Assembly (NCBI GenBank): GCA_041595255.1
Contig: JBFHKR010000001.1
Coordinates: 1,140 to 65,139, forward strand
Direction of reading: 5' to 3'
From: Chlorobiota bacterium
GTDB taxonomy: Bacteria; Bacteroidota; Ignavibacteria; Kapaibacteriales; UBA2268
Length of the DNA: 64,000 bases
Shown here: in pieces, positions 21,691 through 58,383 of the stretch
Layout: every line of letters starts with the position of its first letter
Numbering within the stretch: position 1 is the first letter of the stretch
Program-made: the position numbers and the translations under genes
Notes under the pieces: generated by a model
The model's database searches: none
What the model saw: the letters and a program-made list of their open reading frames with translations, nothing else
Told to the model about the DNA's origin: nothing

Positions 21691-22761
21691 ATGAAAACAA
21701 CATTACCTATATCGATCTTATTACTGCTCGGTTTGATGTCGTGTACATCGACTAGAACTAACAACTATTATAGCTATGATAAACCAGATGAACAAATTAT
21801 AATAGTAGACAAAAACAATTCACAAGGTGACTCTGGTAACAATACTGGATGGGTAAATCCATTATCAAATAAAAAAACAACAAAGAATGTTTATACATCT
21901 GATAATGGTTCTGATGTTACGGTTATTAATAATTACTATAATCAATCACCCTACTATCAACCTGTAGTAGTTCCTTGGTGGAATGATGTGTATTATACAG
22001 GTTTTTATGGTTATCCTTATTCTGGATTTGGATTCGGGTTTTCCTATAATTGGGGTCCAAGATATTTTGATTGGTATTCTCCATGGTACAGATTCCATCC
22101 TTCGTTTGGTTTTGGTTGGGGTTTCTATTACGACAATTTCTATTTTAATAGATTCAATAGCCATCATCATCATTACAATTACGGACACAATCACAGAAAT
22201 TACAACAGATCACGTAATTATGCTCAAAGAGATAATTATAACTATTATAGATCACCAAGTACAAATTCTGTAAACTCTAGAAGTGCAGTTTCGGGTTATA
22301 ATAGAAGCGCTAGTACAAGTAGCCTCTACAATCAGAGCAATAGTACAAGTTACAATAGAAGTACTGGAACTAATTCTAATTATAATAGGACATCTGTGAA
22401 TGAAAACTCGAATAATACTAGAAACTCAAATGGTTCTAATTATAATAGAAGCAATTCAAATTCTACGACTAATACTAATTCTTATAACAATAATACAAGG
22501 ACTAATACAACTAGAAGTTCTTCAAGAACCAATACTACCAATAATACAAATGTAAATAGAACAAATACAAACACAAGAAGTTCTGGTTATACCAGATCTA
22601 GTGGTACTTCAGGTTCCAGCAACACATCAGGAACTCGTTCAAGCGGATCAAGTTATAATAGATCTTCCGGAAGTAGTTCGAGTGGAAGTAGTGGTCGCTC
22701 TTCAGGTGGTAGTTCAGGTGGTAGTAGCGGATCAAGCAATTCTAGAGGTGGTAGAAGGTAA
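21691..22761 (+). CDS. Lipoprotein with extreme low-complexity tail (aromatic/Gly-rich then N/S/T/R-rich YNRS / RGG-like repeats)
   Basis: 356 aa. Good RBS (aaaggag), signal peptide with lipobox-like LGLMSC, an FGFGFSYNWGPRYFDWY...HHHH block, then about 200 aa of N/S/T/R/Y with recurring NYNRS, ending SSGGSSGGSSGSSNSRGGRR. The nucleotide sequence shows cryptic tataatagaag repeats. Confidence 0.6.
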   Translation: MKTTLPISILLLLGLMSCTSTRTNNYYSYDKPDEQIIIVDKNNSQGDSGNNTGWVNPLSNKKTTKNVYTSDNGSDVTVINNYYNQSPYYQPVVVPWWNDVYYTGFYGYPYSGFGFGFSYNWGPRYFDWYSPWYRFHPSFGFGWGFYYDNFYFNRFNSHHHHYNYGHNHRNYNRSRNYAQRDNYNYYRSPSTNSVNSRSAVSGYNRSASTSSLYNQSNSTSYNRSTGTNSNYNRTSVNENSNNTRNSNGSNYNRSNSNSTTNTNSYNNNTRTNTTRSSSRTNTTNNTNVNRTNTNTRSSGYTRSSGTSGSSNTSGTRSSGSSYNRSSGSSSSGSSGRSSGGSSGGSSGSSNSRGGRR

Positions 22762-22763
22762 TA

Positions 22764-24167
22764 ATGTATAAGATACCTATTTTAATTGCATTATTTTACA
22801 CTGTTGGATTGCATTCTCAGAATATAGATGGAACATTATTAGATGTTATAAGATATTCTTCAGATAACAAAATAGTAAATACCCGATCCGCAGGATTGGG
22901 TTTTTCTTATTTAGGAGTCCTTAATGATGTAGCAGCACTACATTATAATCCAGCTGGTTTAGCATTGAATAATAAAACAGAAGTTTCATTTGGGGCAAAC
23001 TACAAGGATAACTCAATTACCACAGATTATTTAGATAATTTTGTTAATTCCAATGTTAATGATATAAACTTAACTAATATTTCTATATCATCTCCTGTTA
23101 GAGCTAACTATCAAAATTTAGATTTATATTTTATAGGAGTTTCATATTCTAGTAGTTTACAGTTTAACCAACTTACTAGAGCTGATGGATTTAACTATTC
23201 AAATTCATATATAAACTATGAATCAAAACAAGAAAGGTTATGGACTGAAAATACGAAATTATCACAAAATAGTATAACTTTCATTAATGATAGTCTATAT
23301 CAAGAATACCAATTATCTGAGTCTGGAGGTAATCATGACTTAACTTTTGGACTTGCTAGCGAATATTTTGAAGGCTTAGCAATTGGTGGGAGTATCAATT
23401 TTTCATTTGGATCTTATAAGTATGTAAGATTCTTAGATGAATCAGATACAAAAGAAATCTATCAAGAAAAAACTACCGAACCTCCATATAGTGATATAGA
23501 TAAAGTGTATCATACATTAGAGTATAATCAAGATTATACTTCAATTAATTTCAACATAGGGTTAGTTTATACTTATGAGGATTATTATAGACTCAGCATC
23601 AATATTAATACACCTGCAAGTATGAGAATCGAGGAAAATTTTTATGAAGAAGCAGAAGTAATATTTGATGATCAAGCTAGGACAACTTATAATAATTTGG
23701 GAAATATTAATAGCAGTTACTTTGATGTATTGTTACCTTGGTCTTTTGCTATTGGTACTTCTTACAATTCTGATGAATTAACACTAGCTGCAGCATTTCA
23801 ATTCAAAAATTATCCGGATATCGAATTTTTAAGAACCCAATCTAATTATTTGATGGATTTGAATGATAAAATGTATGGCTTACTCGATGGTATAGTTAAA
23901 TTTGGTGTAGGTTTCGAATATCAAATACCTTATTCTATTATTCAACTAAGAAGTGGAATAACTTTACAGTCTTCCCCTTTTGATAATACGAGTTTAACCA
24001 AATTATATAGTGGGGGAGTGGGGCTATTTTTATTTGAAACACTTAGAGTAGATTTATTTGGGCAGTTATTCAATTCTGATAATGAAGTATTTATATACGA
24101 ATCGCAGATCGTAAAAACTAAAAACGATATCTATAAATGCGGGATTGGATTAACTTATAGATATTAA
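22764..24167 (+). CDS. FadL/OmpP1-like outer-membrane beta-barrel protein
   Basis: 467 aa. Signal peptide and a hatch-domain-like NPAG motif (ALHYNPAGLAL) near the N-terminus. The rest has an alternating beta-strand character. It starts 3 nt after the upstream lipoprotein gene. Confidence 0.5.
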   Translation: MYKIPILIALFYTVGLHSQNIDGTLLDVIRYSSDNKIVNTRSAGLGFSYLGVLNDVAALHYNPAGLALNNKTEVSFGANYKDNSITTDYLDNFVNSNVNDINLTNISISSPVRANYQNLDLYFIGVSYSSSLQFNQLTRADGFNYSNSYINYESKQERLWTENTKLSQNSITFINDSLYQEYQLSESGGNHDLTFGLASEYFEGLAIGGSINFSFGSYKYVRFLDESDTKEIYQEKTTEPPYSDIDKVYHTLEYNQDYTSINFNIGLVYTYEDYYRLSININTPASMRIEENFYEEAEVIFDDQARTTYNNLGNINSSYFDVLLPWSFAIGTSYNSDELTLAAAFQFKNYPDIEFLRTQSNYLMDLNDKMYGLLDGIVKFGVGFEYQIPYSIIQLRSGITLQSSPFDNTSLTKLYSGGVGLFLFETLRVDLFGQLFNSDNEVFIYESQIVKTKNDIYKCGIGLTYRY

Positions 24168-45440: not shown

Positions 45441-45490
45441 GTTAATTTTTTATTATATTGACATTTATTAAACTAAACAATCTTTTAATT

Positions 45491-45793
45491 ATGCAACTAC
45501 CAAATGACCCGTTTGTATTAGAACTTCTACCAGAATTTATAGAAGATTGGTTAACAAAACTTGATACTGAATATATTGAGTATAGAACTAATAAAGATTT
45601 AGAATCTATGTATAGATTAGCCCATACTATGAAAGGTTCGTCTTATCAGTTTGGTTTTGCTGAACTTGGTGATATTGGTATAGATATGATGGCTCAAGTC
45701 AAAAGCAATGATTGGGAAGGTTTAGAACAAAATAAAGAGAAATTTCGTACTATTCTACTAGAAATCCAAGATTATTTATCACAAAATTCTTAA
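45491..45793 (+). CDS. Histidine phosphotransfer (Hpt) domain protein
   Basis: About 100 aa from ATG 45491. The track ORF uses TTG at 45458. The Hpt signature HTMKGSS (HxxKG) is present in a four-helix-like context. Confidence 0.6.
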   Translation: MQLPNDPFVLELLPEFIEDWLTKLDTEYIEYRTNKDLESMYRLAHTMKGSSYQFGFAELGDIGIDMMAQVKSNDWEGLEQNKEKFRTILLEIQDYLSQNS

Positions 45794-48796: not shown

Positions 48797-50371
48797 TTAT
48801 CTACTTTTTAGTTTTATTACAGGTATTATCATTTCTTCCATAGAAATACCTCCATGCTGAAAACTATCTCTGTACTTATTCAAATAATGATGATAATCAG
48901 TAGGATATACGAAGTAATAATCTTCCTTGGCTATTATGTTATTAACAGTTATTCCGGCTTTCGGAACTTTGATATCTTCAGGGTTACTTATTTGCATAGC
49001 CGTTTTCGGGTCTGCTTTTACATTTTTACCAAATTTATACCTAAGTGATGTTGAAGTATCTTTATCCCCTAAGACTTTTACACCTCTAAGACATCTAATT
49101 GAACCATGATCCGTAGTTATTATTATTTTTGCATCTTTTACATTAGATAGTTGTTTCAACATACCAAGAAAACTTGAATGTCTAAACCATGAACTAGTTA
49201 GAGACCTATAAGCCGATTCGTCCGGTGCTATTTCTTTAAGAATTGCATAATCAGACCTTGAGTGTGCAATCATATCTACTGCATTTAATACTATAGCAGT
49301 CAAATCATTATTGGCAAACTTTAATATATCTTTTTCAACCCTTTTACCGTAGTCAGTGTCAAAAATCTTTATATATACTGGGTCATTTTTTAGTTTAATT
49401 CTTCTTCTTTGAAGCCAAGATTGCATCAGCTCCTTTTCAAATTTGTTTTGCGTATGTTCTTCACTGTTAACTTCAACTTGCCAATACTGTGGATAATATT
49501 TCTTTATATCAGAAGGGAAAAGTCCTGCAAATAAAGAGTTTCTACAATATGGCGTTGCAGTAGGTAATATAGAGCAATAAAAATTAGTATCAAAAGTATA
49601 ATATTGTCTTAGAACTTCCTCAAATAATAACCATTGATCATATCTCATACAATCTACAACGAATAAAAATGTGGGTCCATCTTTCTCAATTTCTTCCCAT
49701 AAATATGCATCTAAAATATCTGGAGAGAATAAAGGCAGATCTTCCTTTTCTTCACTATTTATCCAAGACACATAATTATCTTCAACAAATCTTGAGAATG
49801 CTGTATTAGAATCACTCCACTGGTCGTTTAAAGTTTCTTTTAGTCCAGAATCAGGATGTTTATCTAATTCGAATGACCATTGAACTAATTTCTTATATAT
49901 ATCTACCCAGTCATTCCAAACCATAGGTCCCATAAGTTGTCTACTAACTTGTGAAAATCCTCTCATATAATCTTGTGTGAATTTCTCAGTCTCTATTCTT
50001 TCAGTCTCTAAGAATTTTTTACATGCTAATAGTATTTGAGCAGGGTTTACTGGTTTAGTAAGGTAGTCATCTATCTTTAGACCAATAGCTTCTTCCATTA
50101 CACTTTCAGCTTCATTCTTGGTAACCATTACGACTGCAGATGCAGCACTTAGTCTTTTAAGTTCAGGCAAAGTATCCAATCCTGACATCCCAACCATATT
50201 CTCATCTAAAAAAATCAAGTCATAGTGTTTAGATTTTACTAACTCAATGGCATCTTCTCCATTAGTTGCTTTATCAACATCATAACCTCTTTTTTCAAGT
50301 AAGATTATATGTGGTTTTAGTACTTCTATTTCATCATCTATCCAGAGGATATTGCCTTTACTTGTCATCAA
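48797..50371 (-). CDS. porX: PorX-like response regulator (REC + PglZ/alkaline-phosphatase-like effector domain)
   Basis: 524 aa. N-terminal REC (NILWIDDEIEVLKPHIILLEKRGY, DLIFLDENM), then a large PglZ-like domain. Length and architecture match the PorX family of Bacteroidota. Confidence 0.78.
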   Translation of the reverse strand: MMTSKGNILWIDDEIEVLKPHIILLEKRGYDVDKATNGEDAIELVKSKHYDLIFLDENMVGMSGLDTLPELKRLSAASAVVMVTKNEAESVMEEAIGLKIDDYLTKPVNPAQILLACKKFLETERIETEKFTQDYMRGFSQVSRQLMGPMVWNDWVDIYKKLVQWSFELDKHPDSGLKETLNDQWSDSNTAFSRFVEDNYVSWINSEEKEDLPLFSPDILDAYLWEEIEKDGPTFLFVVDCMRYDQWLLFEEVLRQYYTFDTNFYCSILPTATPYCRNSLFAGLFPSDIKKYYPQYWQVEVNSEEHTQNKFEKELMQSWLQRRRIKLKNDPVYIKIFDTDYGKRVEKDILKFANNDLTAIVLNAVDMIAHSRSDYAILKEIAPDESAYRSLTSSWFRHSSFLGMLKQLSNVKDAKIIITTDHGSIRCLRGVKVLGDKDTSTSLRYKFGKNVKADPKTAMQISNPEDIKVPKAGITVNNIIAKEDYYFVYPTDYHHYLNKYRDSFQHGGISMEEMIIPVIKLKSR

Positions 50372-50573
50372 TTCTCCATTTTTTGCATTTTAATTATCTT
50401 AAATTATGCTTTATTTCTGTAATCTATATTCTATCTTACGAATATTTTAAATAAATGCTACACTTTAGCATAACTTTTATATGAAATACATTATTATATT
50501 AAAATAATCGCTTCAATTTTTTGAAATTAAAACCGTCTATAGTTAAAGTATTAGTAACGTATTTAGTGTAGTT

Positions 50574-51884
50574 ATGAATTTTGATAATTTTACAATTAAG
50601 TCACAAGAAGCAATTAATACAGCTTCACAAATCGCAAAAAGCTTTAATAATCAAGCTATTGAACCTGCACATCTTTTTGCTGCTCTTGTTCAAGATAATG
50701 AAGGAATTGTTTCTAGTATAATTGGACGTATTACAAGTCAAATAGATATTATTAAAATAAAAATTACCAATTTAATTGAGAAGTATCCGAAAGTTACTAA
50801 TATTGAAACTGAGAATTTTATTTCTAATGATTTGAGAAAAGTATTTTCTATATCAGAATCAGAAGCTAAAGTTCTAAAAGATGAATTTATCAGTTCTGAA
50901 CATCTATTTCTTGGAATTATAGAGACAAATAATTCAGTTTCTGAACTACTAAAAAATTATAATATAAATAAACAAGAAGTATATAAAATTATGAAAGATA
51001 TAAGAGGAACACATTCTGCTTCGGATAAAAATGCAGAAGACAGATATGACTCATTAAATAAGTACGGTCGTAATTTAAATCAAGAGGCTCAGAAAGGTAA
51101 AATAGACCCTGTTATAGGCAGAGATAGTGAAATTAGAAGAGTTTTACAAGTGTTAGCAAGAAGAACTAAAAATAATCCATTACTAATAGGTGAACCAGGT
51201 GTAGGGAAGACTGCAATAGTAGAGGGAATAGCACAAAGAATAGTAGCGGGAGATGTACCTGATGGACTAAAAGATAAAACTTTAATTTCTCTTGATATGG
51301 GAACATTAGTTGCTGGTACAAGTTATAGAGGTCAGTTTGAGGAAAGATTAAAAGCGATTATTAAAGAAGTAACTGATTCAAATGGGGAAATTTTTCTATT
51401 TATAGATGAAATACACACTTTAATTGGAGCTGGAGCCACATCTGGGAGTATGGATGCCGCGAATATACTAAAACCTGCTTTGGCTAGGGGAGAGTTGAGA
51501 TTGATAGGTGCAACAACTTTAGATGAATATCAAAAACACATAGAAAAAGACGCAGCATTAGAAAGAAGATTCCAACAAGTATTAGTAGATGAACCAACAG
51601 TTGAAGATACAATCTCGATACTTAGAGGTTTAAAAGAGAAATATGAAGTACATCATGGGGTGAAAATAACAGATAAAGCAATAGTATCAGCAGCAGAGCT
51701 TTCTAATAGATATATAACCGAAAGATTTCTACCTGATAAGGCCATTGATCTTATAGATGAAGCTGCAGCAAGATTAAGAATTGACATGGATTCAATGCCA
51801 CAGGAGTTGGATGAGATAGAACGAAAAATTCGCCAATTAGAAATAGAAAAGCAAGCTTTACTTAATGAACTAAAAAATAATTAA
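50574..51884 (+). CDS. clpB: ClpB-like AAA+ chaperone, C-terminally truncated (N-domain + NBD1 only; possible pseudogene/fragment)
   Basis: 436 aa. Clp N repeats, Walker [10 protein letters not shown], Walker B FIDEIHTL, then the first M-domain helix ([26 protein letters not shown]) and a stop. The rest of the M-domain and NBD2 (about 420 aa in full ClpB) are absent, and no other frame continues. Confidence 0.7.
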
Positions 51885-51953
51885 ATAAATTATTTTTATT
51901 GTCATTTATTATTCTATACTTTAGAGTAATATAAAAAATGATTGCAATAAAAA

Positions 51954-53831
51954 TTGTTTCGATATCTTCTATTATTTATCATAATAACATACTCAGCTAA
52001 ATCTCAAGCTATATTTGAACCTATTTATTTTGTTCAAGATAGTAGCTATATAATTACTGGAACTAATAAATTTCAGAACATTTATAACTTTAGTGATGAA
52101 ATATTTGTAACTCAAAATGGCGAATATGGCCGTTTCTATGTATTGCAAAACTATTATGGTCAAGGCACTCCTCTTGCTAATAGTAGCTCATTCCAAGAAA
52201 CTCAAAAATTAAGACTTAACTATGAATATGAAGTTACCTCTGATTTATTCTTTGTAAATAAGAATAACTGGTTTATTTCTTCAAACACATTAAACTTTGG
52301 TCAAAACAAACTTGAAAGATTAAATTTTCTTTTAGGTAGTAAATATTCATTTCTTCAAAACTCCTTTATGGAGGGAGGGTATGGGAAAGAACGCAATACA
52401 ACTGTAGGTATAGAAACAATAGGTGACTATTATTATGCTAACTATTCAGTAAGTAATCTAGAATTAGAAGATCTTTATATAAATAGTCAAGGGTTTGCAG
52501 ATATAGTAAATTTAGATGATGGTAGAGTGAATAAAGATATAAACTTTAGATTAAGTGCTTTAAAGTCCTTTGATGAAAGAAGTTCAATATTCTTTGATAT
52601 AGGATTATTGAATCGTAATAGAGATAATCCAGAAATAAATCCAGGCTTAGTGGATATACCCATAAGACGGAGACAATCTGATAAAATACAGATGAGTACC
52701 AGTTTAAATTTCTATTTATCTGATAAAATTTCTAATATTATTTCGATAGGATTAAATAATGAACTTATTTCGAACAATTATCTTTCTAGCTATAATTCCA
52801 TCAATGAATCTAATTTTAAACGTGAAGTTGATATTTATAACTTTGATATATCAAATACACTAAACTACAGAGCTATTGACTTCAATCTATTTTCATATAT
52901 AAATTATAATAGAACAAATGAAGATTACTCTGCTTTAAATATTTTAAACCTTCCAGCTAATCAATTCGAAATATATAGAAATGACCAAAACAGGCAAGAT
53001 AGAGTTGAATCATATTTTAATATGAAATTAAATAGTTTTATAAACCTTTCCAACAAAGATTCACTAAGTATAGGCACTGACTATAGGTTGCTTAGATATG
53101 ATACACCATCTGATAAAAATAATGATGACAGGGATGAGTTATCATTAGCAGGAGATATAGAGTATATTAGAAGAGTTTCTAATATACTTTCAATTGGTAT
53201 TCGCAATGAATTTAGATTCTTTCATTATGTGTATTTAAAATCACAGAGAAGTTCTTCGAATAATTGGAATAGAATTATTAAAATGGCTCCAACTATTATT
53301 ATTAAGTCTAATTATTTCTACTATAAACCTATATTAGGAATAAATGCCAATTATACAACTTATGATTTTGAAAATATAGTTACTGGAATAAATAGTTTTA
53401 GTTTTCGAGAAGTTTCATATCTAGATTCAATACAAATAAAGCTTGCTAATCAAACTTTCTTTGAAACTAAAAATGAAATGAGATATTCTGAAAGAGGGAT
53501 ACTTTACTGGAATGTATTTGCAGAGCAACCTCAAAGATCTAATTTTGAGTTATTTTTGAGAGGAATTTTTATTAAAAGAACTGAATATTATATTGTTGGA
53601 TGTGGATTAAGGTATTTTAAAAGAAAAGATATTCGCATAAGTGAGTTTATTTCACAAAATAATGTTATTTTAAACGACTTTGAATCATTAGCTCCAGAAT
53701 TGATTTTAGAATATATATTCGATTCGGGTAATTCTTTCAAATTAGATTTTTGGTACGAATTTCAATCTATAAATTTGATTAAAAAGAACGAATTGGTGAA
53801 TTTTTATTTATCTACAAATATAAAGTTATGA
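51954..53831 (+). CDS. Large secreted/outer-membrane beta-barrel-like protein, hypothetical
   Basis: 625 aa from a TTG start. Signal peptide (cleavage near SQA). Tyr/Asn-rich alternating-strand composition over the whole length. No recognisable motif. Confidence 0.45.
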   Translation: MFRYLLLFIIITYSAKSQAIFEPIYFVQDSSYIITGTNKFQNIYNFSDEIFVTQNGEYGRFYVLQNYYGQGTPLANSSSFQETQKLRLNYEYEVTSDLFFVNKNNWFISSNTLNFGQNKLERLNFLLGSKYSFLQNSFMEGGYGKERNTTVGIETIGDYYYANYSVSNLELEDLYINSQGFADIVNLDDGRVNKDINFRLSALKSFDERSSIFFDIGLLNRNRDNPEINPGLVDIPIRRRQSDKIQMSTSLNFYLSDKISNIISIGLNNELISNNYLSSYNSINESNFKREVDIYNFDISNTLNYRAIDFNLFSYINYNRTNEDYSALNILNLPANQFEIYRNDQNRQDRVESYFNMKLNSFINLSNKDSLSIGTDYRLLRYDTPSDKNNDDRDELSLAGDIEYIRRVSNILSIGIRNEFRFFHYVYLKSQRSSSNNWNRIIKMAPTIIIKSNYFYYKPILGINANYTTYDFENIVTGINSFSFREVSYLDSIQIKLANQTFFETKNEMRYSERGILYWNVFAEQPQRSNFELFLRGIFIKRTEYYIVGCGLRYFKRKDIRISEFISQNNVILNDFESLAPELILEYIFDSGNSFKLDFWYEFQSINLIKKNELVNFYLSTNIKL

Positions 53832-54232
53832 CGAAAGAACTATTAATATCTACCGACAACAATACTTTGGTAAAAGCTGAAGAATTCTTGAATGATTTTA
53901 GATCTGAGTATCTTATAGAGCTAGATAACAGTTTTATGAATATATTGATAGCATTTACTGAAGCAGTTAATAATGCTATATACCACGGCAATAAGAAAGA
54001 TGAAAGTAAAAAAGTTCTGATTAAGTTAGAAAAGAATTCTAAGTATTTCGTTATTTATGTTCGCGATGAAGGAAATGGTTTTATTGAATCTGAAGTACCA
54101 GACCCAACATTACCCGAAAATCTGCTAAAACAATCAGGTAGAGGTGTATTTTTGATTCGTAAATTAACAGATGAAGTGGATATTATAAGTACTAGTGGTG
54201 GGACTGAGGTCAAGATGGGGTTTAGACTATGA
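53828..54232 (+). CDS. RsbW/SpoIIAB-like anti-sigma-factor-type serine kinase (GHKL HATPase_c_2)
   Basis: 134 aa. N-box EAVNNAIYHGN, G1 box VRDEGNGF and G2-like SGRGVFLI. ATGA overlap with the upstream gene and ATGA-type overlap with the downstream gene. Confidence 0.7.
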   Translation: MTKELLISTDNNTLVKAEEFLNDFRSEYLIELDNSFMNILIAFTEAVNNAIYHGNKKDESKKVLIKLEKNSKYFVIYVRDEGNGFIESEVPDPTLPENLLKQSGRGVFLIRKLTDEVDIISTSGGTEVKMGFRL

Positions 54233-56331
54233 AATATGATAACAAAAGTGATATGTTGAGTCAACTTAAAAATATATTATCTCAAAGAGATAAATTTAAA
54301 ATAATTAATATAAATGGAGAGTTTCTAACAGGTAAAACTTCTGCAATACAAGAATTAATAACAGATATAGAATTTATAAATCAATATAATGTATATACTT
54401 ATGTAAATGACTGGGAAAAGTACAATTATTTATTCGATATCACCTCTGATTTCTTTGAGAATTCTAATCTACAACACCCTGAATTTACTTTCAATGAATC
54501 AAAATATTTTGTAAATAGTTTCTTTGATACATTAAGCACTTTAAATATATCAAATAAGGATTTATTCAATGAAGTGAATGAATATTTATTAATTGAGAAT
54601 AATTTAGAGCTTAATGAATCATTAAAAAAGAAAATAGAAGTTAGTGTAAAAAACGATCTGAAAAAAAATTTACTATTGTATTATTATGAGATAAGTATAG
54701 AATGCTTAATAGCAGATTTACTTAACAATTTCTTTCCATTGAATAATCAGATTGAGTCACTATCAGATTATTTATTATCTAGAGAACCAATTAAAATAAT
54801 GCTAATATTTGATGATGCCCAATCTATTTCTTCGAAAATTGAAAAATGGTTCGAAGAATTCTTCTCATATTTGACAGCAAAAAGATTGGGTGATTTATTA
54901 CTTTATGACTACAAAGGTAAGGACTCTCAAATTAAGTTAGGGGAGTTTTTTACTATCGACTTGCTTTATATAAGTAGAAACAAATCAATAAAGATAGTTG
55001 GTAATGACATAAAAACAGATTATTTAGAATTGACTTATCCGAAGAATAAAGAATATATTGCAGATAATTCCGAATTGCCACCAGATTTAGATATTGATGG
55101 TTTACCAATACTTGGGATTCCTTTGTTGGCTGAATATTATGTACAAATTGAGGAAGATAAAGACAATGCTACAGCCGTTTATGCTGTTAATCATCTTCTC
55201 AAGTATATTCCTGCAGAATTTCAAAGGTTGATAATATTCTCCTCAATATTTGAAGAATTTACACTTAAAGAAATAAACCTATTTGAAGAAATAAAAATAA
55301 ATGAAAATGATTTTAATAATCTGTTACCAAATTTAGATTTTATTACTAATTCAGATTATGGATTTAAAATTAATTCGAAAGAAAAAACTTTACTTTTCGC
55401 AGTTTATCAACTGATTTTTAATGATATAGATTCAATGCAATTAATAAATATTAGTAAAGCTTTGAAATCTAATTTTCCAAATTTTTCATATACTGAATTC
55501 GAATTAATAAGAGAATTAGCATATTTTAAAAATTTTGATAAGACCTTCATGTTAGAACATTATTTTGATAATGATAAAAATCTAACACAGTTACTAGAAA
55601 TTAGGAATGATTTCTTTATTAAAGATAAGTCTTTCTATTCCTTAAAAACAGAATATTCTCAAATATTAATGCAATATAATACTATAAGAGATAGTAATAT
55701 TCGAAATGAGAAATTAAGTAGTATAGAAAATATATTTTTAAAATATAAAGATGAGATTGAAAAAAGAAACAAAGTATTGCAAGAAGATGTAATAAATGTA
55801 GGAAATGAAATAAAAGAGTTTCGTAAAGATAAAGAACAAATGGTAACTAAATCTGAAAGTTTAGGAAAAACCAGTATTTCTTTGCGTAATGAGATAAATG
55901 AAATAGATAACGATCTTAAACCATTTATCCATCAGAATTCAAAACAAAAAAGCACGATAAACTTTATAGCATTGATAATATCTGTAGCAATTATATTCAA
56001 TTCAGATAGGATTGCTGAATTGATATTCGGAAATTCATCAGACTTTGATTATATTATTGTTATAACTTTTATTTTACTTTTAGTTCTGTATGGGAATGGA
56101 TTACTCAGGTATTTCAGAGTAAAGTTTAAATCAGAAGAGCTACATGCTCTAAAACAAAGTAAGAGTAATAAAGAAAAAGAATATGAGAAAATTACGAGTG
56201 AATTAGAAATACTTAATGCAGACATAAGAGCAAAGGAATCTAAAATAGAGGATTTAAATCGACATATAGAAAGGATGAATATTCAGATTTTTGAAAATAA
56301 ACAAAAGTTAGAAAGAAGTACTTTAAACTAA
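54229..56331 (+). CDS. Membrane-anchored P-loop NTPase with coiled-coil regions, hypothetical
   Basis: 700 aa. Walker A KIININGEFLTGKTS (GxxxxGKT) and Walker B-like IKIMLIFDDAQ. A long helical middle region is followed by a coiled coil, two TM helices (INFIALIISVAIIF, YIIVITFILLLVLYGNGLL) and a C-terminal coiled coil. Confidence 0.5.
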   Translation: MKYDNKSDMLSQLKNILSQRDKFKIININGEFLTGKTSAIQELITDIEFINQYNVYTYVNDWEKYNYLFDITSDFFENSNLQHPEFTFNESKYFVNSFFDTLSTLNISNKDLFNEVNEYLLIENNLELNESLKKKIEVSVKNDLKKNLLLYYYEISIECLIADLLNNFFPLNNQIESLSDYLLSREPIKIMLIFDDAQSISSKIEKWFEEFFSYLTAKRLGDLLLYDYKGKDSQIKLGEFFTIDLLYISRNKSIKIVGNDIKTDYLELTYPKNKEYIADNSELPPDLDIDGLPILGIPLLAEYYVQIEEDKDNATAVYAVNHLLKYIPAEFQRLIIFSSIFEEFTLKEINLFEEIKINENDFNNLLPNLDFITNSDYGFKINSKEKTLLFAVYQLIFNDIDSMQLINISKALKSNFPNFSYTEFELIRELAYFKNFDKTFMLEHYFDNDKNLTQLLEIRNDFFIKDKSFYSLKTEYSQILMQYNTIRDSNIRNEKLSSIENIFLKYKDEIEKRNKVLQEDVINVGNEIKEFRKDKEQMVTKSESLGKTSISLRNEINEIDNDLKPFIHQNSKQKSTINFIALIISVAIIFNSDRIAELIFGNSSDFDYIIVITFILLLVLYGNGLLRYFRVKFKSEELHALKQSKSNKEKEYEKITSELEILNADIRAKESKIEDLNRHIERMNIQIFENKQKLERSTLN

Positions 56332-56969
56332 GGGTACAATCTTTCTATTTCCCATTTATTAGACTTTAACTTATATTGAATTCTATCATGCAAACGGCTT
56401 TCTCTACCTTGCCAAAATTCGAATGATATTGGTTTTATCAAATATCCACCCCAATGTATAGGTCGTGGAGGATTGTCAGGGAATTTTGCTTTTAATTCAA
56501 TTATCTTCGATTCGATTTCACTTTTAGAATTAAGTGGAGAGCTTTGATCCGATGCAATTGCACCAATCCTACTTTCATAAGGTCTTGAATAAAAATATTT
56601 ATCAGATTCTTCTGGAGATAATTTCTCAACATAGCCATTAATTCTTACTTGTCTTTCTAATTTATCCCAATAGAATAGCATAGAAGCATTAGGGTTTTCA
56701 GATAATTCTTTTCCTTTCTCACTCAAATAATTAGTAAAAAATTGAAATCCGTTTTCATCAAATGATTTAAGTAACACGATTCTAGAAGAAGGCATCATAT
56801 CTATTCCACAAGTTGATAAATTAAATGCAGTTGGATCATAGAATAAATTAGACTTTATTGCAATTTCAAACCAGTCTTTGAACTGGTAAAATGGGGAAGA
56901 GTGGACATCACTTAAATCTAAAGAAAATTTCGTATATTCTTGTCTTATCTCAGATAAATTCTCAATCAT
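56328..56969 (-). CDS. pdxH: Pyridoxamine 5'-phosphate oxidase
   Basis: C-terminal signature IEFWQGRESRLHDRIQYK, FMN-binding core and EIRQEYTK near the N-terminus. The start is taken at the internal Met, MIENLSE. The track ORF extends to 57041 and overlaps the next gene. Confidence 0.85.
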   Translation of the reverse strand: MIENLSEIRQEYTKFSLDLSDVHSSPFYQFKDWFEIAIKSNLFYDPTAFNLSTCGIDMMPSSRIVLLKSFDENGFQFFTNYLSEKGKELSENPNASMLFYWDKLERQVRINGYVEKLSPEESDKYFYSRPYESRIGAIASDQSSPLNSKSEIESKIIELKAKFPDNPPRPIHWGGYLIKPISFEFWQGRESRLHDRIQYKLKSNKWEIERLYP

Positions 56970-58383
56970 AGCTAAAATACTCTGATAATTTGAAGTCGTA
57001 TCCCTTCGGTTCAAAAAGTCCTGTTGTATCGTCTGAAACATAATCTCCTATTACTTTACCATCTATTATATTTTTAATAGCTTGTATTAAATAGTCAACT
57101 TCTTCAAATGTATTGTATATACCAAAACTAACTCGAATTGCTCCGGGTAAATCTACTTTACGTTTGCAAATAATATCATTTTTCAACTTTTGGGCAGTGT
57201 TTTCGTCTATATTCATTAGTTTAGCTATATAAGGATGGGTGCAAAAACAACCAGTTCGCACTCCAATTCCGTATTCATGCGCTAAAATTGAGCCTACATA
57301 ATTATAGTGCATATCTTTTAGATTGAATGCTATAACTCCTAATTTATCCTCGAGAGTGTCAAAATCTGTTTCTACAAGTAAATCTATTTCTGGAATTTCA
57401 TCAAATTTCTTCAAAATGTACTTTGTTAACTCTAATTCATGTTCTGCAACATAATCCATACCATAATCATCTAATTGCTTACATGCTGCAGCCATTGCAA
57501 TTCCACCTATAGTATTAGGAGAACCTGCTTCTTCTTTGAATGGAAGTGCTGCCCATACAGTTTCTAAATGGGTAACATATGCAGCCATACCTCCTCCTAC
57601 AAATTCGGGGTCACCTTCTTCGCATAAATCCCTAGGGCAAAGCAAAACACCAGAACCATATGGCGCATATAATTTATGAGAAGACATTACTAAAAAATCA
57701 ATATGTTGTGGATCGTCACATGGTTTCATATCTATTTTTCTATGAGGTGCAAGCTGAGCCGCATCTAAACAAAACTTAGCACCTACAGAATGGGCTATCT
57801 CTGCTACTTCGTGATACGGATTTACGAATCCTGATACATTAGAAGCACCTGTAAGTGTAATTAGTTTTATTCTTTTACCATATTGTTTGATTTTGTTATT
57901 TAGATCATTCATATCCAAATAACCTTTATCATCAACTGCAATATAGTCAACAAAATTATTTCTTCTCCAAGGTAAATCATTAGAATGATGTTCCATGCCA
58001 GATGACAATATGACATCACCTGGATTCAAACATATTCTATAACTCAACTTGTTAATCGCTTCAGTTGTGTTCTTAACAAATATTGTAATATATTGTTCTG
58101 GATCTGCATTTACAAACTTCGATACTATATCATGTGCTTGATCAAAAGCTTCAGTAGAAATAAAGGATTTTATGCCTTGACCTCTGTGAATTGCAGAATA
58201 ATAATCAATTGCTTCATTAACTTTATTTCTCACTGAAAGGAATGAAGGAGTGCTTGCCGCATTATCAAAAAAAGTATATTGACGCATAGTGCCATCTAAT
58301 AATCTCACTTTCTTATCTAAGCCAGCAATATTTTTCCTTATTTCATCAGTTTTATTACTAATTAACTCTTTTGTGCTAAGCAT
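56962..58383 (-). CDS. Class V aminotransferase-fold PLP enzyme, cysteine desulfurase-like
   Basis: 473 aa. PLP-Lys context SSHKLYAPYGSGVLL, the fold-type I N-terminal region and a conserved Cys near the C-terminus (GCFCTHP). Confidence 0.72.
   Translation of the reverse strand: MLSTKELISNKTDEIRKNIAGLDKKVRLLDGTMRQYTFFDNAASTPSFLSVRNKVNEAIDYYSAIHRGQGIKSFISTEAFDQAHDIVSKFVNADPEQYITIFVKNTTEAINKLSYRICLNPGDVILSSGMEHHSNDLPWRRNNFVDYIAVDDKGYLDMNDLNNKIKQYGKRIKLITLTGASNVSGFVNPYHEVAEIAHSVGAKFCLDAAQLAPHRKIDMKPCDDPQHIDFLVMSSHKLYAPYGSGVLLCPRDLCEEGDPEFVGGGMAAYVTHLETVWAALPFKEEAGSPNTIGGIAMAAACKQLDDYGMDYVAEHELELTKYILKKFDEIPEIDLLVETDFDTLEDKLGVIAFNLKDMHYNYVGSILAHEYGIGVRTGCFCTHPYIAKLMNIDENTAQKLKNDIICKRKVDLPGAIRVSFGIYNTFEEVDYLIQAIKNIIDGKVIGDYVSDDTTGLFEPKGYDFKLSEYFSYD

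Follow-up and report, generated by a model that had tools for sequence, protein, structure and literature searches.

We analysed a 64,000-nucleotide stretch of a Chlorobiota bacterium contig (JBFHKR010000001.1, positions 1,140 to 65,139; hereafter the window), in which three consecutive genes on the forward strand encode a predicted outer-membrane beta-barrel protein (the barrel), a small RsbW/SpoIIAB-type GHKL protein (the kinase) and a predicted membrane-anchored P-loop NTPase (the NTPase). These genes form a vertically inherited chromosomal operon of Kapabacteria and close relatives, not an insertion; the operon is real, conserved and undescribed in one bacterial class, and it combines one known protein family with two unannotated ones. 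The closest named relatives are metagenome-assembled genomes (MAGs) called Candidatus Kapaibacterium and 'Ignavibacteriae HGW-4'. Our literature searches turned up neither an account of the gene trio or the barrel-kinase pair nor a paper that connects Kapabacteria, anti-sigma kinases and an outer-membrane protein. The list of open reading frames (ORFs) and the sequence itself bore out the original prediction, made from the DNA letters, that three plus-strand ORFs are joined here by two ATGA overlaps. The locus is arranged as follows.

50574..51884, plus strand: upstream gene for the N-terminal half of ClpB (ClpB N-half), 436 amino acids (aa), comprising the N-domain, the first nucleotide-binding domain (NBD1) and the first helix of the middle (M) domain.
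51885..51953: intergenic spacer of 69 nucleotides (nt), with a block conserved in close relatives, ...TATTCTATACTTTAGAGTAATA...
51954..53831, plus strand: predicted outer-membrane beta-barrel protein, 625 aa, TTG start; putative signal peptide at aa 1-19 (51954-52010) and about 28 predicted strands at aa 32-624.
53828..54232, plus strand: RsbW/SpoIIAB-type GHKL protein (HATPase_c_2), 134 aa, predicted to be cytoplasmic; N-box at 53960-53992, G1 at 54065-54082, G2 at 54134-54145.
54229..56331, plus strand: STAND/Cdc6-like P-loop NTPase, predicted to be anchored in the inner membrane, 700 aa; Walker A at 54316-54339, Walker B at 54796-54816.
C-terminal parts of the NTPase: predicted coiled coil at aa 492-566, transmembrane (TM) hairpin at aa 577-626 (55957-56106) and coiled coil at aa 630-695.
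56328-57041, minus strand: pdxH, convergent with the NTPase gene.

Both junctions within the operon are ATGA stop/start overlaps, at 53828-53831 between barrel and kinase (context ...AAGTTATGACG...) and at 54229-54232 between kinase and NTPase (context ...GACTATGAAAT...), and the end of the NTPase gene reaches four bases into the convergent pdxH. Same-strand genes that overlap or abut are frequent in this genome, also where they are unrelated (for example, RuvB/CDF and RimM/Dtd), so the ATGA overlaps alone are weak evidence of coupling; the evidence for linkage is the gene order kept across species. By inference only, a promoter of the three genes may lie in the 69-nt spacer. The block TATTCTATACTTTAGAGTAATA is common to the window and to the upstream regions of L001 and L008-L011, and a sigma-70 scan placed TTGTCA-17-TAGAGT in the spacer, a kind of match that is no commoner there than in shuffled sequence. 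A terminator scan returned three weak terminator-like sites, none of them located between the genes, and no Rfam family was found in positions 50000-57500. An antisense ORF at 54055-54264 (69 aa) was set aside as a chance ORF with no support.

To compare gene order, we searched six-frame translations of 82 non-redundant species-level loci with hidden Markov models (HMMs) built from orthologues. The order in the window, namely a PglZ-domain response regulator (minus strand), ClpB N-half, barrel, kinase, NTPase and pdxH (minus strand), was the same in relatives whose NTPases are 54% and 40% identical to that of the window. The kinase gene lies directly 3' of the barrel gene in 72 of the 82 loci, and three of the ten absences are contig ends, leaving 72 of 79 assessable loci. 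The gap between the two genes is at most 9 base pairs (bp) in 54 of 61 called pairs, 19 of the 61 showing a 4-bp overlap, and the adjacency persists where barrels are only 25-33% identical. The NTPase follows the kinase in 17 of the 82 loci, a distribution that is known at barrel-bearing loci only, as the loci were retrieved through the barrel gene. Nine of these 17 loci belong to the window's clade; the other eight are distant (19-27% NTPase identity), and their NTPases keep the Walker A motif, the Walker B aspartate, R250, the coiled coils and the TM hairpin. The idea that all three genes form a conserved unit thus held in part: gene order is kept across species, but only barrel and kinase are nearly invariant companions. 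What is conserved as a unit is the barrel plus the kinase; in two deep clades the NTPase is added as an accessory third gene.

Which gene stands third depends on the lineage: it can be the NTPase, an M28 peptidase, a histidine kinase or CcmB, or else a gene that runs on the opposite strand. Where the flanks vary, they consist of housekeeping genes, among them UvrD, a class I tRNA synthetase (TrpS/TyrS), the M28 peptidase, riboflavin synthase, CcmB and HrcA. One large sub-clade (L021, L023, L026, L031-L033, L037, L038, L040, L048, L052, L053, L058, L065, L068, L082 and L088) has UvrD upstream of the barrel and, after the kinase, a PA-domain M28 peptidase of about 515-535 aa whose gene usually overlaps the kinase stop by 1 or 4 bp. 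This peptidase may be a further recurrent partner or may simply reflect conserved synteny.

The family assignment of the middle gene is unambiguous. Pfam PF13581 (HATPase_c_2) matched the 134-aa kinase over residues 12-130 with an E value of 6.5e-23 (81.6 bits against a cut-off of 27.4), and the sequence carries an N-box at E45-N55 (EAVNNAIYHGN), a G1 motif at D80-F85 (DEGNGF) and a G2 motif at S103-G106 (SGRG), as expected from the earlier claim of an RsbW-like GHKL protein. Residues of all three motifs are at least 95% conserved among 68 orthologues, and the kinase is probably active because these ATP-binding motifs are so well kept. The best named matches are SpoIIAB and RsbW, whose NCBIfam models gave E values of 9.3e-13 (48.3 bits against a cut-off of 135) and 1.1e-10 (41.2 bits against 145), respectively. 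In PDB, sequence matches to RsbW (6m36, 4.9e-6) and SpoIIAB (1e-4) were preceded by 'SenB' (9qih), an entry that we could not trace in the literature, where the SenB papers found concern an unrelated selenium glycosyltransferase. We found no signal peptide and no TM or other hydrophobic segment in the kinase sequence, so the protein would be cytoplasmic. In size, in its single HATPase_c_2 domain and in its N-box, G1 and G2 motifs it resembles RsbW and SpoIIAB, and its sequence clearly places it as a single-domain protein of this type, unlike GHKL proteins of the MORC or topoisomerase type. It differs from RsbW/SpoIIAB modules in that its constant neighbour is a predicted outer-membrane barrel and in that the equivalog scores are not reached.

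The first gene encodes a protein with a signal-peptide-like N terminus (MFRYLLLFIIITYSAKSQA), and an AlphaFold2 (AF2) model computed from a 60-sequence alignment (mean predicted local distance difference test score, 89.6) is all-beta, with about 28 long strands running from residue 32 to the C terminus, short loops and no plug domain. The C terminus, YLSTNIKL, alternates hydrophobic residues in the manner of an outer-membrane beta-signal, and the last residue is L, F, I or W in all 60 homologues examined. These features, which agree with the original description of a secreted beta-barrel protein, predict with high confidence that the 625-aa protein is a very large, plug-less outer-membrane beta-barrel. 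Its most conserved motifs, RYDTPS..DDRDEL, SQRS..NNWNR and ANYTxYDF, are predicted by strand parity to lie in extracellular loops. The family comprises more than 850 proteins, with 384 relatives among 185,579 species genomes. The top structural matches were LptD and MtrB (26 strands each) and TonB-dependent transporters (22 strands), which resemble the barrel in carrying a signal peptide, in forming an all-beta barrel of similar size and in ending with a hydrophobic beta-signal, at sequence identities of at most 11% and TM-scores of at most 0.44. Unlike them, the barrel has about 28 predicted strands and lacks an N-terminal plug, a TonB box and a beta-jellyroll; there was no match to Pfam Plug, TonB_dep_Rec or OstA and, unlike at MtrB and LptD loci, no cytochrome or LptE-like partner gene lies nearby. 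We therefore ruled out a TonB-dependent transporter (no Plug or TonB_dep_Rec match, strands starting at residue 32, about 28 of them rather than 22) as well as LptD and MtrB (no jellyroll, no cytochrome partner).

In the third gene, the P-loop head, TM hairpin and two coiled coils that had been proposed were recovered from sequence motifs, hydrophobic segments and a structural model. Walker A reads GEFLTGKT (residues 30-37) and Walker B IMLIFDD (190-196), and hydrophobic segments span residues 577-595 and 608-626. The AF2 model (mean score, 80.2) shows an alpha/beta P-loop head followed by a helical and winged-helix region (residues 1-490) and, after it, a TM hairpin between two coiled coils, with long helices at 492-566 and 606-695. 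The head would be cytoplasmic because it is N-terminal to the hairpin. Neither the NTPase nor the barrel had a significant match in Pfam, NCBIfam or PADLOC, in line with the suggestion that the cassette is not a described partner-switching module or defence system. The best Pfam match of the NTPase was NB-ARC (E value, 0.019; 14.7 bits against a cut-off of 23.5), and when 60 family members were scanned singly they matched AAA_22, NPHP3_N, AAA_16, nSTAND5, NACHT, KAP_NTPase and NB-ARC weakly, with any single STAND-class family hit by at most 16 of the 60. A PDB profile search gave matches limited to the P-loop and coiled-coil stretches. The family numbered 25 proteins in a word-indexed search and 86 cluster representatives in an exhaustive profile search of 1.84 billion proteins, nearly all of full length (700-745 aa); the latter search returned nothing beyond the family itself.

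The model suggests that the NTPase is a divergent switch ATPase of the STAND/Cdc6-like kind, tethered to the inner membrane, with its N and C termini both in the cytoplasm. As in STAND proteins, its P-loop nucleotide-binding domain bears Walker A and B motifs and precedes helical and winged-helix domains. Unlike STAND and Cdc6-ORC ATPases (NB-ARC, NACHT, archaeal ATPase_2), it has no repeat sensor (TPR, WD40 or LRR) and no effector domain, and no Pfam repeat or effector domain was found in it or in the 60 family members scanned; distant members have N or G in place of the second acidic residue of Walker B, which also departs from the STAND type. KAP NTPases likewise pair a P-loop with two TM helices, and 6 of the 60 family members matched PF07693 (best E value, 1.3e-9), the window NTPase giving no KAP match. 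In KAP NTPases, by definition of the family, the TM helices are inserted inside the P-loop domain, whereas the hairpin here lies about 380 residues past Walker B, behind the helical domain and a coiled coil. We ruled out a KAP NTPase on this ground, as the hairpin is outside the P-loop domain.

RsbW-type kinases are textbook components of partner switching and are normally read through their neighbours, a STAS antagonist, a PP2C phosphatase and a sigma factor. A canonical RsbW/SpoIIAB module encodes all three, the last being sigma B or sigma F, whereas none is encoded at this locus or at related loci. We read the ORFs of the window, with Pfam on ambiguous ones, and found no STAS, PP2C or sigma-factor gene, just as had been noted from the letters, nor were there any among the recurrent neighbours of 73 loci. 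A jackhmmer search with STAS probes, run over the window and 1.5 Mb of related loci, gave no STAS-like ORF, which is a weak negative.

We tentatively propose, at somewhat less than even confidence, that the operon links envelope status to transcription through partner switching, an account in which we infer every functional step. The kinase would be made in step with the barrel, and it would hold or phosphorylate a partner encoded elsewhere, namely a sigma factor of group 3 or an antagonist of the STAS type. At the inner membrane, the anchored STAND ATPase would be a nucleotide-driven switch or scaffold that relays an envelope signal to the kinase and so fills the place of the classical PP2C phosphatases as the input. 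Kinase and NTPase head could meet because both are predicted to be cytoplasmic, and the STAND-like fold suggested by the model belongs to a class that acts as a signalling switch, which counts for this mechanism.

Several observations weigh against this proposal. No sigma factor, STAS or PP2C gene was found within ±10 kb of the 82 loci, the kinase scores below the equivalog cut-offs of both SpoIIAB and RsbW, and only the family of the kinase points to partner switching. A barrel in the outer membrane cannot contact a kinase in the cytoplasm, which leaves their tight pairing without a mechanistic explanation. Most barrel-kinase loci have no NTPase, and an unrelated third gene often stands there with a 4-bp overlap; the NTPase, whose distribution we see through the barrel gene, may therefore be dispensable or only loosely linked.

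If the barrel-kinase pair, with the STAND ATPase where present, did form a trans-envelope signalling device of Kapabacteria that has so far gone unrecognized, the barrel would report the envelope state, the STAND switch would replace the STAS/PP2C input and the kinase would direct its output to a sigma factor. We regard this full version as distinctly unlikely; the NBD1-only ClpB and the FlbD/SwrD ring protein described below could be further components of such a device, and its existence would mean a new architecture for partner switching. Each Dma protein is one polypeptide of the extracytoplasmic function (ECF) anti-sigma type, whereas barrel and anti-sigma-like protein are separate here, the latter being a predicted cytoplasmic GHKL kinase. 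A Bacteroidota case in which outer-membrane anchoring is coupled to anti-sigma function (PMC10927553) offers no more than an analogy. What the locus presents is an orphan kinase of the RsbW type whose conserved envelope context is unusual, and we do not claim a new mechanism. Across a whole bacterial class this kinase is kept beside an uncharacterized barrel of about 28 predicted strands, and part of the class adds a STAND ATPase. Should the three proteins act together, they would represent a new wiring of envelope to transcription in Bacteroidota and the Fibrobacterota-Chlorobiota-Bacteroidota (FCB) group, and two protein families that carry no annotation would gain functions.

It is also conceivable, albeit unlikely, that the three genes share no function and are neighbours through the tight packing of a small AT-rich genome. 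In that case the barrel would serve as a housekeeping protein of the outer membrane in this class, the kinase would be an orphan regulator, and the NTPase would be a membrane protein specific to certain lineages. Gaps of 0-4 bp and overlaps are common between unrelated genes in the window, an M28 peptidase gene unrelated to the kinase shares 4 bp or 1 bp with it in about 18 loci, and the third position differs between lineages, all of which count for this reading. However, the barrel-kinase adjacency survives at 25-30% identity amid reshuffled flanks (UvrD, ClpB N-half, HrcA) in 72 of 79 assessable loci, and adjacency that outlives its surroundings is the usual signature of functional coupling. 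The NTPase, too, keeps its position after the kinase in two clades in which NTPase identity is only about 20%.

We consider equally improbable a flagellar association, in which barrel and kinase would belong with FlbD/SwrD, a family of flagellar-motor accessory proteins: the barrel would be an outer-membrane part or partner of the basal body, the kinase an RsbW-type regulator of the flagellar sigma factor and the NTPase a placement or assembly factor. The gene flbD follows flgE in Bacillus and spirochaete flagellar operons, and anti-sigmas of the RsbW/SpoIIAB type act on group-3 sigma factors, the group that includes FliA. The barrel is immediately preceded in 22 of the 82 loci by a true FlbD family gene (PF06289; above the cut-off with E values of 2.9e-22 and 2.3e-18), which often overlaps the barrel's start, and at L087 the barrel-kinase pair is downstream of fliK-flgD-flgE; Kapabacteria MAGs have been reported to carry flagellar and chemotaxis genes (PMC7509429, PMC6338057). 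Set against these points, the FlbD gene is absent from 60 of the 82 loci, where barrel and kinase nonetheless stay paired, from the 64-kb window (by tblastn) and from the window's clade at the locus, L087 is the only locus with hook or rod genes (FlgE, FlgD, FliK) near the module, and the role of SwrD/FlbD is itself unsettled (PMC13232269). The FlbD/SwrD genes, for example at L005 (7799-8023) and L006 (7715-7924), lie far from other flagellar genes, and in L006 and L055 the heat-shock repressor gene hrcA precedes them.

The gene upstream of the barrel matches positions 1-427 of the 853 in the NCBIfam ClpB model (E value, 6.5e-196), with the Pfam domains Clp_N, AAA and AAA_lid_9 and intact Walker A (GEPGVGKT) and Walker B (FIDEIH) motifs. 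A full ClpB disaggregase comprises NBD1, NBD2 and a complete M-domain in about 850 aa, whereas the window gene encodes the N-half only. In 18 of the 82 loci, a same-strand gene of this kind (435-447 aa; 62-93% identity) stands upstream of the barrel; it also occurs in genomes lacking the NTPase (L005, L025, L044) and in several loci overlaps the FlbD start. It is under selection rather than a pseudogene because its length and sequence are kept across these 18 loci, and it may belong to the same transcription unit as the three genes. Neither the window nor the ±10 kb around any related locus contained an ORF for the ClpB NBD2 or C-half.

An anti-phage or other mobile cassette of membrane NTPase, GHKL ATPase and outer-membrane component, inserted where clpB is truncated, as the original prediction had suggested, is a very improbable account of the operon: the half-length gene is conserved with its Walker motifs intact and no C-half downstream, also in genomes without the NTPase; in relatives with as little as 40% NTPase identity, the locus keeps its position and its housekeeping neighbours; and no integrase, transposase, tRNA or repeat lies at the borders of the module in the window. 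STAND/KAP-like NTPases and GHKL ATPases do occur in known defence systems, NTPase family members match KAP_NTPase and BrxC/BrxD weakly, ClpB is only half length, and the guanine-plus-cytosine (G+C) content of the three-gene stretch (0.24-0.27) is slightly below that of the flanks (0.29-0.34). Nevertheless, the best PADLOC matches (E values of 0.024 and 0.13) were to models of unrelated restriction-modification proteins (the specificity subunit of a type I system and a nicking endonuclease of type II), none of them significant and none for the kinase, which is a 134-aa RsbW-type protein and not a GHKL protein of the MORC or topoisomerase type. Nor do homologous loci sit in defence islands: their flanks are housekeeping genes, and within the clade the position between the PglZ-domain response regulator with ClpB N-half and pdxH is fixed. 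A mobile or defence island is thus very unlikely. Even if the three proteins do not act together, a tempting misreading, that of an inserted defence cassette in a broken clpB, is corrected and a conserved half-length ClpB is flagged.

The full-length Clp ATPase of L087 was considered as a source for the missing ClpB C-half and rejected, since its hits carry a UVR domain; it is ClpC-type and not an orthologue. At L087 (5680-6000) and in the upstream region of L069, a GC-rich palindromic element of about 60 nt (…CCCCTCTTCGCAAGAGGGGGCCAGGGGGTGTTCTCC…) is repeated in tandem, and its copies, which look like intergenic repeats of the repetitive extragenic palindromic (REP) kind, fill the spacer from the ClpC-type gene to the barrel. 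Clp ATPases that consist of the C-half only (about 400-610 aa; UVR, AAA_2 and D2-small) include P0233, P0292, P0307, P0347 and others, called on 34-280 kb contigs from Ignavibacteria/Kapabacteria-like metagenomes. They may be split Clp/Hsp100 genes or gene-calling artefacts.

Two further regions of the window deserve mention. Divergent from ClpB N-half, at 48797-50371 on the minus strand, lies the gene for a PorX-like response regulator with a receiver and a PglZ domain, a pairing kept in 11 related loci, and an Hpt protein is encoded at 45458-45793, about 3 kb from it. At 21691-22761 on the plus strand, just upstream of the gene for a FadL-like outer-membrane protein (22764-24167, PF03349), an ORF of 356 aa shows extremely low complexity, with runs of N, S, T, R, Y and G and with S/G repeats at the end.

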